DNA of 64,000 nucleotides from a virus (taxonomy: Duplodnaviria > Caudoviricetes). Made by a program: the position numbers and the translations under genes. Shown in pieces: positions 182 to 63,490 of the stretch; position 1 is the first letter of the stretch, and each line of letters starts with the position of its first letter. Location of the stretch: IMG/VR virus record IMGVR_UViG_2879905790_000001, positions 1 to 64,000 of that record; one strand, written 5' to 3'. Below the pieces are notes generated by a model that was not told where the DNA came from, did not search any database, and saw only the letters and a list, made by a program, of their open reading frames with translations.

Positions 182-224
182 TATTCAGCTAGTATTAATA
201 TAAAAAATAAATTTTATATACACT

Positions 225-480
225 TTAACTTCACTAGAAGCCCTTTAAGGCTGTTTAAAATATTTTAAGGTGGATTATATCTATAGAATTAAAGTCGGTT
301 AGAATGACTTATATTAAGTTTTGGATTTTAAAATAAATATTTCAAATTAAATATAAAACAATTTAAAAAAAGTATTGACTTTATATAAAAAAGGGTGTAA
401 TATAATAAGTGTCAAGAGGAAATAAAAACTTACATGCAAATACAAAACAATTTAATAAATATAAAAGGAGTTGTTTAAAA
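225..480 (+). repeat. Early promoter module, copy 1 (~250 bp; copy 2 at ~6105-6365, diverged copy 3 at ~7862-8095)
   Basis: Blocks shared with copy 2: ATTAAAGTCG, TATTGAC, GTGTAATATAATAAGTGTCA, GGAAATAAAA(A)CTTACAT, AAAACAATTTAATAAA, GGAGTTGT. Confidence 0.75.
375..406 (+). promoter_or_regulatory. sigmaA-type promoter
   Basis: TTGACT-17bp-TAATAT, with overlapping TATAAT. Confidence 0.65.
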
Positions 481-702
481 ATGAAAAATATTAATTGTGT
501 AAATTTTAAATTTGTAGCAAGTACAAGGTGTTTAATGGTTATAAATAAAAAAGGTGAATTAATAGATAGTAAGTTTTATGGTGAATTTGAAGAAAATATT
601 TCTTCTAGTGTCAACAATGACATAAAACAATGGTTAAATAATAATATTTTACTAGTAGATTCATATAGTTACGATTTAGACCAATTAAAAACAATTTGTT
701 AA
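481..702 (+). CDS. Hypothetical early protein
   Basis: ORF; start moved to ATG 481 behind AAAGGAG. Confidence 0.7.
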   Translation: MKNINCVNFKFVASTRCLMVINKKGELIDSKFYGEFEENISSSVNNDIKQWLNNNILLVDSYSYDLDQLKTIC

Positions 703-735
703 AATGTAGATTTTATATTAACAGGAGGGTTAACA

Positions 736-882
736 ATGATGATTGGTAAAAATGGCAATAAAATAAAAGTATCTGAAAGTAATGGAATGGTAATTACAGA
801 TAGAAAATGTAGTAAATGTGGTACTACATTGAGATTATCTGAAGTGTTAGACTATAGTAATTTATGTGAAGATTGTCAATAA
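736..882 (+). CDS. Small CxxC...CxxC zinc-ribbon protein (48 aa)
   Basis: RBS AGGAGG; MMIGKNG...CSKC...CEDCQ; below ORF-track cutoff. Confidence 0.65.
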   Translation: MMIGKNGNKIKVSESNGMVITDRKCSKCGTTLRLSEVLDYSNLCEDCQ

Positions 883-1024
883 ACTTATTTAGGCTATAGA
901 CATATAACAGAATAAAGCCTATAGCCTAGATTTAAATTTTGATATGAGTTATCAAAAATAAAATTCTATATAACAGAAAAGTTTTGATAATTGATATAAA
1001 AATTTAAAGAGGAGTTGTTTACAT

Positions 1025-60200: not shown

Positions 60201-62513
60201 GTGAAAATCATAATGAGTTTAGAAAATAAAGAAACAGGAATTAATTTAGAATGTTATATAAGATTAAAATATCAAATGTTTCCCAAAGAACAAAAACATG
60301 AATCAGGAGATTGGTGTGTTGTTACAGCAAGTGTTGAGGATGTTATAAGTGGAGAACCAAAAATCCATCCTAAATATAAAACAATTAAAGTAATTGGGAA
60401 ATTACCCAAATTCGATTATAACGAAAGTTATAAACTAGTTGCAAAAGAAATATATAATGAAGATTATGGTTATTCTTATGAAGTGTTCTATTTTGGTCAA
60501 CCAATGAAAATAGGTAATGAAAATGATAAAAGAATATTTTTAGAAAATATTCTTACAGATACACAGTTGAAAAATTTTTATGATGCATATGAAAATCCTT
60601 TTGATATTATAGCTAATGAAAATATAGCAGGTATGACCAAAGTTAAAGGAATCGGAGCAAAGACAGCTTTAAATATAATAGAATTATACAAAAACCATAT
60701 AGATTATTCTAGTATATATGTTAAATTAAATGATTTTGGATTATCAAAAAAAATGATAGAAAAATTAATAGATAAATATAAAAGTCCAGATATTATAGTT
60801 GATAAAATAAAGAATAATCCATATATACTTATAGATGAAGTAACAGGTATAGGTTGGGATAAAGCTGATAAAATGGCTTTAGAATCAGGTATGTCTAAAA
60901 TTTCAAAATTTAGAATAAAAGCATTTATAAAATATGTATTAAACACAGAAGCTTTAAATGGTAATTCGTATGTAGACCCTGTTTTATTAACTAGATTAAT
61001 TAAAGAAAACATAGAAGGATTAGATAATAAAATTTTAGCTCAAATAATACAAGAGTTATATTCAGAAAAAGTTTTATGGCATAATTATGATAAAAGATTG
61101 AAAAGAGCTACAAAAGTAGCTTTATATAAATATTATTGGTTAGAATATAATATTTCACAAGAATTAAAAAGAATAGCTAATGGGAAGAATGATTTCAAAT
61201 ATGATAATTGGAAAGAAGTAATTAAAAAAGTTGAGAAACAACAAGGATGGGAATATACAGACGAACAAAAAAATGGTATAAAACAAGCATTAGATAGCCA
61301 ATTTATAATGATAACAGGTGGTGGTGGAACTGGGAAAACAAGTGTTGTAAATGGACTAGTTAATGTTTTAAAAGATTATTTATATATTCAAACTGCGTTA
61401 TCAGGAAAAGCATCTTCACGTATGGCAGAAGTTACAGGAGAAGAAGGGTATACAATACACAGAGTTTTAGGATATAAACCAAATGAAGGATTTACTTATA
61501 ATAAAAATAACAAAATACCAGCTGATATTATTATATTAGATGAAATATCTATGGTAGGTGGTGAATTGTTTTATAGTTTAATTCAATCAATTAAAACAGG
61601 AGCAAAATTAATAGTGCTTGGAGATGTCCACCAATTAGAAAGTATTGGGTGTATGAATTTAGCAAAGGATATATTAGAAAGTAAGACATTAAAAGCAGTA
61701 GAATTAACTAAAATACATAGACAAGCACAAAAATCAGGAATTATAACTAGTAGTTTAGCAGTAAGAAAAAAACAACCTTTATTGGAGTCTAGGTGTGATA
61801 TAGGAGAAAAAATTTATGGTGAATTAAAAGATTTTAAATTAAATACGTATGCAGATAAAAAATTCAGTATGGATAAATGTATAGAAGAATTTAAAAGATG
61901 TTTACCTTTAGCTAAAGACATTACTGAAATACAAGTTCTAGTTCCAATAAAAGAAAGAGGGACAGCAAATGTTTTTACATTAAATAATGAATTACAAAAA
62001 ATATATAATCCTAACAATAATGATAATAAAATAACTATAAGTATCTCAAAAGACAAACAATTTAACATAAAAGAAAATGATAAAATTATTATTATAAGGA
62101 ATAATTATAAAACAGTAGATGAAGATGGTGAAAATACACCTATATTTAATGGACAACAAGGTATTGTGAAAAAAATAGATTTAGAATCTAAAATAATATA
62201 TTTACGAATGCCTTATGTTAGTGATAAATTAATATTAATACCTAAAAAGAATTGGGGAGATTTAATGTTAGGATATGCTATGACAGTAGCTAAATCACAA
62301 GGTAGTCAATATGAATATGTTATAGGTTGTATAGATTACTCTACTCCGCCTATAATGTTAGTAAAAGAATTAGTGTACACTTTAATAACGAGAGCTTCTA
62401 AGTATGGTGTATTATTAGGAGAAACAAATGCATTATATAAGGCTATGATTACGAGTTTTGTATCTACAAAACAAACATTCTTAAAACATATGCTTGATAA
62501 TGAAACAATTTAA
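60201..62513 (+). CDS. recD2: RecD2-like SF1B helicase
   Basis: HhH KGIGAKTA; GGGGTGKT; DEISM; GDVHQL; HRQ; NGQQG; KSQGS; YTLITRA. Confidence 0.9.
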   Translation: MKIIMSLENKETGINLECYIRLKYQMFPKEQKHESGDWCVVTASVEDVISGEPKIHPKYKTIKVIGKLPKFDYNESYKLVAKEIYNEDYGYSYEVFYFGQPMKIGNENDKRIFLENILTDTQLKNFYDAYENPFDIIANENIAGMTKVKGIGAKTALNIIELYKNHIDYSSIYVKLNDFGLSKKMIEKLIDKYKSPDIIVDKIKNNPYILIDEVTGIGWDKADKMALESGMSKISKFRIKAFIKYVLNTEALNGNSYVDPVLLTRLIKENIEGLDNKILAQIIQELYSEKVLWHNYDKRLKRATKVALYKYYWLEYNISQELKRIANGKNDFKYDNWKEVIKKVEKQQGWEYTDEQKNGIKQALDSQFIMITGGGGTGKTSVVNGLVNVLKDYLYIQTALSGKASSRMAEVTGEEGYTIHRVLGYKPNEGFTYNKNNKIPADIIILDEISMVGGELFYSLIQSIKTGAKLIVLGDVHQLESIGCMNLAKDILESKTLKAVELTKIHRQAQKSGIITSSLAVRKKQPLLESRCDIGEKIYGELKDFKLNTYADKKFSMDKCIEEFKRCLPLAKDITEIQVLVPIKERGTANVFTLNNELQKIYNPNNNDNKITISISKDKQFNIKENDKIIIIRNNYKTVDEDGENTPIFNGQQGIVKKIDLESKIIYLRMPYVSDKLILIPKKNWGDLMLGYAMTVAKSQGSQYEYVIGCIDYSTPPIMLVKELVYTLITRASKYGVLLGETNALYKAMITSFVSTKQTFLKHMLDNETI

Positions 62514-62531
62514 TAAAAGGTAAATAACCAT

Positions 62532-62560
62532 TTGACAAGCATAAAATAATTTGGTAAAAT
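62532..62560 (+). promoter_or_regulatory. Promoter with TAAAATAATTTGG box in its spacer, followed by a 5' hairpin
   Basis: TTGACA-17bp-TAAAAT; AGATTACAGGTT...AACCTGTAATCT. Confidence 0.7.
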
Positions 62561-62615
62561 AAGATTACAGGTTAAGGAAAATAAAACCTGTAATCTAAAG
62601 AGGGGAGTATAGTTA

Positions 62616-63251
62616 ATGAAAAATACAATTATAATATATTGTGATGGTGGCTGTAGAGGAAACCAAAAAAAAGATAATATAGGTGGATGGGGTGCTATTT
62701 TAACTCAAAATGGTACAGACAATAAGAAAGAGATATACGGAAATAAAGTTAACACAACAAATAATCAGATGGAATTGACAGCTTGCATTAAATCTCTAGA
62801 AGCAATTAGAAGGGATGTAAGACCTATATGTAACATAGAAATACATTCAGACAGTGCTTATTTAGTTAATGGTATGAATAGTTGGATTCATAGTTGGATC
62901 AAAAAGAATTGGAGAAATTCACAAAAGAAACCTGTTGAAAACAAAGAATTGTGGCAGCAAATATTAGCATTAACAAAACAGTTTGAAGATGTAACTTTTA
63001 ATAAATGCAAAGGACATGATGGTGTAGAATTAAATGAAAGAGCAGATGAATTAGCTAACATTGCTATGGATGAATTAGAAAATAAGGATACAGTTGACAT
63101 AGATAAGAATACAGAATTACAAACTATTTTAGAGAGTTTAAAGTCTAATAAAAGGAATTTAGAAGAATTAAATATAAGAGGATACATAGAAGATGCTGTA
63201 CAAAATCTTGATTTAGTAATAGAAAATATTAATGATGAGTTAGATGAATAA
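62616..63251 (+). CDS. rnhA: Ribonuclease HI with acidic C-terminal extension
   Basis: YCDGGC, TNNQMEL, SDSAY, VENKELW, KGH, NERADELA. Confidence 0.92.
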   Translation: MKNTIIIYCDGGCRGNQKKDNIGGWGAILTQNGTDNKKEIYGNKVNTTNNQMELTACIKSLEAIRRDVRPICNIEIHSDSAYLVNGMNSWIHSWIKKNWRNSQKKPVENKELWQQILALTKQFEDVTFNKCKGHDGVELNERADELANIAMDELENKDTVDIDKNTELQTILESLKSNKRNLEELNIRGYIEDAVQNLDLVIENINDELDE

Positions 63252-63490
63252 ATTCTATATACAAGCTTATATATTAATTAGAAATGAAAAAATCTAAAAA
63301 TTTACAAAAATAAATTTAAAATCAATAGAAATGCGTTTTAATGAAAATGACTAAAATTACAAAAAACTCATTTTAAGAATGGCTTAACCAAGCCGTTTAT
63401 AAGAGGTGAAATTGATATAAAATAAGAATTTTATAGTAATATAAAACAATTTAAAAAAATAAAAATATTTAATAAAAGGAGAGTGTTATA

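Follow-up and report, generated by a model that had tools for sequence, protein, structure and literature searches.

A repeated intergenic palindrome as a likely junction between exchangeable gene slots in SPbeta-like phages

Introduction

What does a short palindrome do when it stands at one gene boundary after another in a phage genome? The question is raised by the first 64,000 nucleotides of IMG/VR virus record IMGVR_UViG_2879905790_000001 (Duplodnaviria; Caudoviricetes), the stretch of DNA analyzed here and called the window throughout, in which a preliminary description counted about 25 copies of an element of the form WTAAAW-N6-TTTTAT. Two readings were offered there, namely that the copies are operators of a SroF-like, integrase-fold repressor encoded at 18285, or that they are entry points for the cassette-like gain and loss of genes through a Xer-like recombinase encoded at 30672. 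On balance, our comparisons lean toward the palindrome being a family-wide junction that delimits exchangeable slots, with homology-dependent exchange as the most likely route, rather than an operator of MrpR/SroF.

The complete record measures 196,981 bp, is estimated to be 99% complete and is organized into a + strand gene block (1-105 kb), a - strand block (106-183 kb) and a second + strand block (184-197 kb). Within the window the guanine plus cytosine (GC) content is 23-28% and every gene lies on the + strand. Because 22 open reading frames (ORFs) of the phage match SPbeta by tblastn, including YopQ, YopR, YorF-YorL, dUTPase, tail proteins and terminase, the window can be taken as the arm for early functions and replication in an SPbeta-like phage with a very AT-rich host. 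A megablast search with window positions 36000-60000 against the phage collection gave no match.

Results

Pattern, spacing and copy number of the palindrome

Counted on both strands of the window, WTAAAW-N6-TTTTAT has 37 matches where 4.69 are expected (standard deviation 2.51, largest 11), a number reached by none of 100 dinucleotide shuffles. These matches correspond to 29 places, 26 on the + strand, including eight perfect palindromes, which count on the - strand as well, and three on the - strand only, in good agreement with the earlier figure of about 25. The proposed six-base spacing also holds against background, with 26 copies at N6 on the + strand, 0-4 at each other spacing between N0 and N19, and eight at N20; TTTTAT alone occurs just 122 times on this strand. 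The whole 197-kb genome contains 44 copies, which follow the coding strand in every gene block (26, 7, 10 and 1) and are densest in the first 64 kb, where small ORFs are found.

Three left arms, ATAAAA, TTAAAA and ATAAAT, are enriched at N6 together with the right arm TTTTAT (17, 13 and 14 copies, respectively, against 1-2 at other spacings), and no others are. Mirror forms and every other single substitution stay at background level, and the arm variants are uncompensated. Inverted arms around six bases are therefore a fair description of the element, but it is tighter and more asymmetric than the palindrome first reported. By information content each arm has six near-invariant base pairs, and the 6-bp spacer is almost devoid of conservation between sites. 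A weak outer symmetry extends beyond the arms, with T at positions -5 (17/26) and -4 (20/26) and A at +21 (22/26) and +22 (20/26) among the 26 window sites; in SPbeta the corresponding flanks read tTtnA and nCAAA.

The motif is not a product of base composition, since among 80 viral loci that carry RtcB relatives it is present in just the two near-identical ones, and the remaining 78, which served as negative controls and have a GC content of 24-43%, contain 0-2 copies each. A pattern scan of viral contigs gave mostly single hits among the matches listed, and is no measure of how far the motif has spread.

In SPbeta itself, a blind scan of the first 100 kb for inverted 5-mers at any spacing placed TAAAA-N6-TTTTA at the top (21 copies against 1.4). 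This form has 34 copies in the whole 134-kb genome, compared with 0-3 at the other spacings from N2 to N12, and 16 in one 50-kb stretch where 1.06 are expected. The coding-strand form ATAAAA-N6-TTTTA(A/T) is represented by 14 and 13 copies for its two endings, against 0.14 at other spacings, and in 10 of the 34 sites the upstream ORF apparently ends with the TAA of the left arm. The SPbeta GenBank record has annotations for stem-loops and for two other palindromes, but for none of these 34 sites. The 16-19-kb early regions of nine Bacillus phages (SPbeta, phi3T, Goe11, Goe13, BUCT082, SPbetaL2, L4, L6 and L8) have 5-11 copies each at N6 and 0-1 at other spacings, whereas Bacillus phage SPP1 has no copy.

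Exchange of genes between successive sites

The gene or genes that lie between successive sites are exchanged between related phages, with the crossover inside the 16-bp core of the element. Four relatives were compared with the phage: the proviruses G001 (159 kb) and G002 (60 kb), which have a 100% identical RtcB and are mosaics of the window, and the more distant G003 and G004, whose MrpR-like proteins are 76% and 84% identical and in which the excess at N6 is also present. Between the phage and G001, the intervals from site to site are filled with unrelated DNA of unequal length. In the window, G001 homology blocks have 20 ends, nine of them no more than 10 bp from a site; DNA this close to a site makes up 7.8% of the local intergenic sequence (P = 8e-6). 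The figures for the whole genome are 12 of 90 block ends, or 7 of 15 for blocks of at least 99% identity. The earlier expectation that breakpoints of replacements and indels between related phages would fall at the sites is thereby borne out. Moreover, in 40 site-by-genome exact 18-mer matches across the four genomes, both 80-nt flanks are at least 75% identical in only nine cases, one flank reaches this level in 17 and neither does in 14. Among contigs from four DNA sequencing runs, those of one run contain the 24-letter junction that follows site 30308 in the form found in G001; many other joints gave only 20-42 matching letters on one side, and were taken as matches to the repeated motifs and left uncounted.

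The Bacillus phages show the same behavior. With breakpoints collapsed per genome, and not per historical event, 131 of 426 are found 10 bp or less from a site, in what amounts to 1.9% of the sequence. Near the sites, 45 of 86 left ends place the start of homology at offsets -1 to +1, and 29 of 96 right ends place its stop at offsets 17-18. Of the 50 palindrome 16-mers shared between phages, 35 have at least one unrelated flank; among the 52844 remaining shared 16-mers this is true of 1230 (2.3%). Fifteen pairs of phages disagree at arm position 0 of a common site, and all 15 also have different left flanks, with the right flank unchanged in 13 of them. In 13 pairs the disagreement is at position 17, and all 13 have different right flanks. 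The outermost arm bases thus segregate with the adjoining module, which places the crossover inside the 16-bp core. Simple cassette models, in which a mobile gene brings the site along at its 5' or its 3' end, were rejected: they predict that homology stops just beyond a single edge, whereas the site is common to both flanking blocks.

Two annotated anti-defense genes illustrate the content of such slots. In SPbetaL6 (L148, 12920-14189) the anti-Gabija gene Gad2 exactly fills the slot between the sites with spacers 'cagaga' and 'acgata', and in SPbetaL4 (L147, 13179-15001) the anti-Gabija gene Gad1 starts 35 nt after the 'cagaga' site.

A gene of approximately 90 aa, 92% identical between the two phages, lies at genome positions 175633-175923 (-) here and, in G001, at a place equivalent to genome 88.2-88.4 kb; its borders lie within a ribosome-binding site and just past its stop codon, and neither has a palindrome.

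The spacer at each site

The sites form fixed slot boundaries with variable content between them, individually addressed and collinear from phage to phage. Among 68 loose sites of the genome no spacer occurs twice, and all 43 spacers in common with G001 are collinear. By our reading of the pair lists the same holds, with circular permutation allowed, for the 24 in common with G003 and the nine in common with G004, save for one duplicated pair in G003. The nine Bacillus phages follow a single spacer order (ttaact, tgtaag, gatgca, gtaaaa, agactg, gatagt, tattta, acgata, gtaatt) with optional extras, and their inter-site distances range from 359 to 3613 bp.

Spacer conservation free of grouping bias is given by one test alone, in which orthologous places in G003 and G004 were located by translated flank similarity (34-90% protein identity), independently of the spacer. 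In 27 such comparisons the spacer is identical in 12, changed at one base in three and different in four, and at several of these places the degenerate arm positions 0 and 5 have changed with the spacer unaltered. The spacer had been said to vary freely, which is correct from site to site, but at any given site it is mostly kept among related phages.

The 26 sites of the window

All exact matches on the + strand of the window are given below. Of the 27 positions proposed in the preliminary description, 22 are among them; 33358 is exact on the - strand only, 11701, 36103 and 48697 have one mismatch, and 31600 has no motif at up to one mismatch. Four exact sites (3508, 9918, 28392 and 39494) had been overlooked.

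200..217, +, ATAAAA-aataaa-TTTTAT: identical 18-mer in G003, with flanks 70% and 74% identical.
699..716, +, TTAAAA-tgtaga-TTTTAT: left-arm TAA is the stop codon of ORF 409-702; AGGAGGG follows 6 nt after the site.
3508..3525, +, ATAAAT-ggtagg-TTTTAT: ATG 4 nt after the site; spacer also in G003.
5005..5022, +, ATAAAT-gtcaaa-TTTTAT: unchanged at the orthologous place in G003, beside a protein of 69% identity.
6611..6628, +, TTAAAA-aatgta-TTTTAT: 6 nt past the stop codon of ORF 6287-6604; next start 27 nt on.
7124..7141, +, ATAAAT-gataag-TTTTAT: 21 nt past a stop codon; no counterpart found in G003.
8295..8312, +, TTAAAA-tgcata-TTTTAT: 19 nt past a stop codon.
9918..9935, +, ATAAAT-tggaaa-TTTTAT: over the start of ORF 9914-10198; spacer kept in G003 and G004, which coding constraint may explain.
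12678..12695, +, ATAAAT-gagggt-TTTTAT: identical in G003 despite less than 70% identity in both flanks.
14865..14882, +, ATAAAA-tccttc-TTTTAT: directly 3' of a GC-containing terminator-like hairpin; spacer kept in G003, one change in G004.
20142..20159, +, ATAAAA-ggatgg-TTTTAT: ATG of the ligase gene at 20160; shared with G001; G003 and G004 have no site at their orthologous places.
23202..23219, +, ATAAAT-gagaaa-TTTTAT: in G003 the right flank alone is conserved.
25563..25580, +, ATAAAA-ggaaaa-TTTTAT: 18-mer common to G001, both flanks just 62-64% identical.
26566..26583, +, ATAAAT-tcacga-TTTTAT: junction; a 99.9% G001 block begins 5 nt upstream; three left and three right contexts of the 18-mer in four genomes.
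28237..28254, +, ATAAAT-cattga-TTTTAT: both flanks conserved in G001.
28392..28409, +, ATAAAT-ggaatc-TTTTAT: inside ORF 28356-28727; may be a chance or coding-embedded copy.
30308..30325, +, ATAAAA-agttac-TTTTAT: junction; left-arm TAA is the stop codon of ORF 29250-30311; a 99.9% G001 block ends at the last base, followed by 259 bp with a 64-aa ORF here and 24 bp in G001.
37270..37287, +, ATAAAA-ttttgt-TTTTAT: junction; visible G001 homology from the first base, BLAST block from 10 nt earlier; to the left, 3861 bp here and 715 bp in G001.
38152..38169, +, ATAAAA-tagttc-TTTTAT: TAG stop codon in the spacer; G001 has GTAAAA and the same spacer.
39494..39511, +, ATAAAT-tttgaa-TTTTAT: junction; a 99.2% G001 block ends 7 nt past the site, followed by 311 bp here and 1077 bp in G001.
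39839..39856, +, TTAAAA-cacttg-TTTTAT: junction; G001 homology resumes 9 nt upstream; three left contexts in three genomes.
41098..41115, +, TTAAAA-ccatta-TTTTAT: junction; left-arm TAA is the stop codon of ORF 40553-41101; a 99.7% block runs from the first base, with 5 bp directly to the left here and 519 bp in G001.
42918..42935, +, TTAAAA-tgagga-TTTTAT: junction; overlaps a stop codon; a 99.7% block ends 23 nt on, past an adjoining second motif, followed by 878 bp here and 876 unrelated bp in G001.
43840..43857, +, TTAAAA-taaaca-TTTTAT: junction; a 99.6% block begins 3 nt upstream.
45646..45663, +, TTAAAA-tctagt-TTTTAT: 1 nt past the stop codon of a 566-aa HNH-like gene; both flanks conserved in G001.
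63417..63434, +, ATAAAA-taagaa-TTTTAT: two diverged G001 blocks meet (ends 63439 and 63454).

Position relative to genes

The sites keep close to the ends of genes. For the 25 window sites with an upstream ORF, the distance from its stop codon runs from 9 nt inside to 6 nt beyond in 10, and 19 lie within 60 nt of the stop; sites outside the window look alike. The overlap with stop codons was correctly recognized earlier, as the left-arm TAA is itself the stop codon at 699, 30308, 41098 and 42918, and at 38152 a TAG in the spacer serves. The next start codon mostly follows 17-66 nt after the site, and the palindrome keeps no fixed distance from promoters or start codons.

A terminator or RNA-hairpin reading was rejected on the weak folding of the sites (minimum free energy of 0 to -2.7 kcal/mol in 13 of 14 and -4.6 in one, with z-scores mostly near 0), on the uncompensated arm variants and on the finding that only two of the 18 terminator-like hairpins of the window adjoin a site. 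A promoter reading was likewise rejected. The left arm does stand 17 nt upstream of the TATAAA of a second motif, described below, in four sites, but at least 10 sites have a ribosome-binding site 6-15 nt after the palindrome, which leaves no room for a promoter, and the gap between palindrome and second motif varies from 1 to 90 nt. ComK boxes (A4-N5-T4) and UP elements differ from the palindrome in spacing and sequence. According to the available text of one report (PMC5467207), YonO, the late RNA polymerase of SPbeta, starts one late operon, and a motif in many copies is therefore not its promoter; YonO was not detected by sequence in the phage genome.

A second, asymmetric motif

The window contains a second repeated motif, TATAAAATAATTTAA, also written TATAAAATAATTTAATAAA, t.aat.TaAAATAATTTAataaa and (T)ATATAAAATAATTTAATAAA, which is asymmetric and has no free spacer. 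In its strict form it occurs 56 times on the coding strand of the genome and twice on the other, and in a loose form 163 times. It lies either 25-55 nt before start codons or approximately 10 nt upstream of the -35 boxes of clean TTGACA-N17-TATAAT promoters, and it often follows the palindrome, as the SPBRE-like CAAATA does in SPbeta. Examples, by the start of AAAYAATTTR, are:

2974, 3486, 5677, 6233, 8897, 23229, 31629, 37260, 42945, 48759 and 63444: second motif.

The available text of one study (PMC10516654) describes ten peaks with a 15-bp motif, SPBRE, in chromatin affinity purification sequencing (ChAP-seq) of SPbeta MrpR. Sequences ahead of seven of the ten genes listed with these peaks share an element that we derived as CAAATAcAAAwAATATGTATA, which either precedes the -35 box by approximately 8 nt or follows the -10 box, ahead of the ribosome-binding site. 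Since TATAAAATAATTTAA is asymmetric, has no free spacer and occupies the same two placements as SPBRE in SPbeta, it is the better counterpart of that box, and sequence comparison makes it more likely that the second motif, rather than the palindrome, corresponds to the SPBRE/SroF box. Its copy number is far above the ten of SPbeta, however, and it may instead be a general expression signal.

At the DNA level G001 has nothing that matches the entire replication module at 48787-62497 (13.7 kb, YorF-like to Pol III alpha and RecD2), whose place there is taken by 12.9 kb of different sequence. Both borders of the exchanged segment lie at the second motif, and neither at the palindrome.

A third motif, TATAACAG, stands immediately 5' of the second and is followed 8-12 nt later by CCTATAA(T/C), and TATAACAGAAA occurs 10 times. 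This third motif looks like a separate promoter class for small early genes, and is found at:

2930-2975, 3440-3490, 3855-3900, 7160-7185, 8360-8405 and 10420-10450: third motif.

In addition, a promoter-plus-leader module of 240 bp is duplicated at 228-465 and 6106-6343 (77% identical), with TTGAC(T/A)-N17-TAATAT(AAT) and a conserved transcribed leader preceding two different small ORFs.

Gene content

Genes of the window were named by Pfam and PHROGs. Those that bear on the function of the sites are:

18270-19343, +: MrpR-like protein, with Pfam MrpR_N_CB and MrpR_C_cat at threshold.
20160-21443, +: ATP-dependent ligase.
30672-31583, +: Xer-like recombinase.
49881-50885, +: Sak4-like annealing protein.
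54223-56037, +: RecJ-like nuclease.

The same searches identified RtcB, a CCA-adding enzyme, DnaB, primase, the Pol III alpha subunit and RecD2. An RNA repair set at 20160-21443, 33751-36100 and 38236-39456, made up of the ATP-dependent ligase, a RlaP-like nucleotidyltransferase, the CCA-adding enzyme and RtcB, probably counters host tRNA-cleaving defenses; G001 is without the block 33399-37259 of this region. The YopQ/YopR-like repressor genes occupy 16832-19343, and directly upstream of them lie a 195-aa protein with a full PemK/MazF domain and a TPR protein (15090-16200). Published work links host MazEF to lysis-lysogeny control in SPbeta and phi3T.

A 566-aa protein with matches to homing/HNH-endonuclease PHROGs (43944-45641) exactly occupies the slot between sites 43840 and 45646; against genome contigs it has distant matches only, in Staphylococcus and two metagenome-assembled genomes. 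Homing-endonuclease-associated repeats are present in two further proteins, at 29250-30308 and 36168-36956. Outside the window, the genes for tail fibers and lysis have two more Xer-like recombinase genes beside them (genome 105966-106922 and 109117-109926), the tail module contains an IS605 OrfB/TnpB gene (genome 131522-132724), and a 1022-aa ORF with no Pfam match (genome 172129-175194) is downstream of site 175257.

Discussion

The coincidence of homology ends with the palindrome, together with the order of its spacers, enables us to propose a model for how related phages exchange their accessory genes. We suggest that exchange is most likely homology-dependent, with the 16-18 identical bases of arms and site-specific spacer acting as a minimal homology patch, a role analogous to that proposed for the PeSL elements of T4-type phages discussed below. 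The agents could be the Sak4-like annealing protein and the RecJ-like nuclease of the phage, or host RecA, and the invariant arms of the dyad would most likely reflect the binding of a conserved, postulated dimeric protein. Three points place annealing over short homology first: the unrelated second motif is the place of junctions just as often (8 of the window's 20 block ends), a small gene has moved without a site at its borders, and both a Sak4-like annealing protein and a RecJ-like nuclease are encoded by the family.

Several observations weigh against this model. A stretch of 16-18 identical bases is very short for homologous recombination. Junctions are not exclusive to the palindrome: the second motif accounts for eight of the window's 20 block ends and the two motifs together for 15, and at least one small gene has moved with no site at its borders. 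Many of the 426 Bacillus breakpoints are the same event inherited by several phages, so that the corresponding P values are overstated. Because sites were grouped by their spacer, spacer identity within an 'address' is true by construction, and no site was found at eight of the 27 orthologous places in G003 and G004. Comparison with the called ORFs put four of the 26 window sites inside one; by our own reading those at 9918 and 28392 are really coding-embedded, and those at 5005 and 14865 overlap doubtful small ORFs. Finally, fixed arms with a site-specific spacer are what a dedicated site-specific enzyme would need.

Such an enzyme would read the fixed arms and cut or exchange strands in the spacer. 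Candidates for it are a dimeric nuclease that acts together with the phage ligase and each of the three tyrosine recombinases of Xer type. The geometry of the element, with 6 bp between its arms, is that of a tyrosine-recombinase core, and there is weak additional symmetry 4-5 bp outside the arms. In alignments with XerA and XerD the recombinase at 30672-31583 retains the residues R, H-x-x-R, H and Y, and the genome encodes two further Xer-like proteins. Crossovers map within the core, spacers are unique within the genome and collinear where they are shared, and the arms are strictly conserved from Bacillus phages to this phage of 25% GC; strict arms and private spacers would be better explained by a dedicated enzyme than by annealing. 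The requirement that partners share a spacer would also account for the preserved gene order and for the failure of 44 sites to delete one another. Against this, only six base pairs per arm are strongly specified, compared with the 11-13 bp of known Xer and Cre arms, and junctions occur equally at the unrelated second motif. The 30672 recombinase is just 25% identical to YopP of SPbeta, a poor match to a DNA motif that is constant across the family, and by our reading of the alignment YopP is without the arginine of H-x-x-R. The pairing of recombinase and site is itself hypothetical, and we regard dedicated site-specific exchange as an unlikely but serious alternative. What remains of the earlier recombination proposal is mixed: breakpoints do fall at the sites and the 30672 recombinase does keep its catalytic residues, but the units are fixed, collinear slots and not free cassettes.

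A purely regulatory role, as the operator of a dimeric regulator or as a transcription or translation signal between genes, appears improbable to us. In such a scheme breakpoints would coincide with the sites because recombinants that lose a site are inviable and because the site fills much of the short intergenic space. It would agree with the location of the sites on the coding strand, beside stop codons and ahead of the next start, with the SPBRE-like second motif and ribosome-binding site that often follow the palindrome in both this phage and SPbeta, and with the helix-turn-helix regulators encoded nearby (28886-29173). However, selection alone predicts neither that approximately half of the homology ends near a site coincide exactly with one of its two terminal bases, nor that the outermost arm bases segregate with the adjoining module. 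The absence of a fixed distance to promoters or start codons, the marginal RNA hairpin with its uncompensated arm variants, and the two of 18 terminator-like hairpins adjoining a site also speak against it.

That the sites are operators of the MrpR/SroF-like integrase-fold repressor is very improbable, although the protein at 18270-19343 is a real MrpR/YopR relative, by its Pfam domains and by matches to solved YopR/MrpR chains (E = 1e-8 to 4e-8), the sites are numerous and intergenic, and one SPbeta site lies 8 nt upstream of the SPBRE of aimR. According to the available text of a preprint (10.1101/2025.11.27.690993), phi3T SroF binds a 26-bp asymmetric box as a monomer and contacts 24 of its 26 bp, a mode of binding at odds with two 6-bp arms around an unread spacer. 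The ten published MrpR peaks contrast with 34 palindromes in SPbeta, of which, by gene coordinates, at most five lie in or within approximately 150 bp of the genes named for these peaks. The arms are the same in SPbeta, phi3T, the seven other Bacillus phages and this phage, although SroF of SPbeta and of phi3T are approximately 30% identical and the phi3T box, as printed in the part of the preprint available to us, differs from the SPBRE derived here. The separate asymmetric motif of the window, by comparison, fits the placement of SPBRE. Box size, monomeric reading, number of sites and constancy of the arms all disagree with the operator idea.

The palindrome has parallels in several known systems. 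The closest described is that of the PeSL (promoter-early stem-loop) cassettes of T4-type phages, and the palindrome plays the same evolutionary role. In the accessible portions of the papers describing them (PMC2839356, PMC4122927; Arbiol et al. 2010, Comeau et al. 2014), PeSL are approximately 50 intergenic motifs per genome among small non-essential early genes, which begin at the upstream stop codon, bound insertions, deletions and replacements between close relatives, and were proposed as homology patches for modular shuffling. The palindrome likewise is intergenic, stands at the upstream stop and bounds indels and replacements where small accessory genes abound. A PeSL, however, combines a sigma70 promoter with a stable, often G/C-rich terminating stem-loop as far as those portions describe it, whereas the palindrome is an 18-bp, all-A/T dyad with neither; private collinear spacers, which the palindrome has, are not described there for PeSL. 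The palindrome also belongs to another phage family, the SPbeta-like phages of Firmicutes hosts.

SPBRE and Phi3TRE, as far as the available texts describe them, resemble the palindrome in being intergenic, multi-copy elements of the same phage family that often directly adjoin it, yet SPBRE is a 15-26-bp asymmetric box for a monomer at approximately ten promoters, those of early lytic genes, and the palindrome is a dyad with an unspecified spacer in 34-44 copies. The search of the full-text literature, which included SPbeta papers and had the 1999 SPbeta genome paper outside its reach, gave no description of the palindrome.

Comparison with recombination systems is also instructive. In tyrosine-recombinase core sites such as those of Xer/dif and Cre/lox, inverted arms of approximately 9-13 specified bp flank a central crossover region of 6-8 bp whose identity could restrict pairing. 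The palindrome shares the inverted arms, here around 6 bp, and the point of exchange inside the site, but its arms appear much shorter (6 bp strongly conserved) and there are dozens of sites per genome; we know of no natural system in which many co-oriented sites with different spacers occur in one genome. The attC sites of integrons are imperfect palindromes of 57-141 bp, which recombine with attI as folded single strands under IntI, and their cassettes are mobile and free in order. The palindrome similarly lies at the 3' end of single accessory genes, in one orientation and with variable content between sites, but it is 18 bp long and its sites keep a fixed order. No IntI/attI platform was seen, attI and Pc not having been searched for, and among solved structures the 30672 recombinase is matched best by XerA and XerD, with IntI4 aligned over residues 225-292 only. 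Linkers at the module junctions of lambdoid phages are short conserved sequences that join unrelated alleles but are heterogeneous and without a common motif, whereas here a single strict motif is found genome-wide, across phage DNA of 25-35% GC.

Phage mosaicism is usually explained by rare illegitimate joins that are filtered by selection, and to our knowledge few phage groups have a defined sequence at their joints. In the SPbeta-like family one strict motif of 16-18 bp marks the joints, from an uncultured phage of 25% GC to SPbeta and phi3T, the models of arbitrium research. The slots between these joints hold genes of a type on which phage-host conflicts turn; in the window they include RtcB, the HNH-like gene and many small ORFs. 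It is possible, although we think it unlikely, that the joints are 'addressed' recombination sites, at which a conserved enzyme would read the TAAAA/TTTTA arms and the private 6-bp spacer would decide pairing. If so, co-resident relatives could swap any single slot in register, be it counter-defense or RNA-repair genes or even a replication module, without ever scrambling gene order or deleting their own DNA, in a natural counterpart of engineered cassette exchange with spacer variants. Should the junction model hold, the variable accessory genes of the SPbeta-like family could be listed automatically, slot by slot, and the mechanism of their exchange would be directly testable by standard B. 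subtilis genetics.

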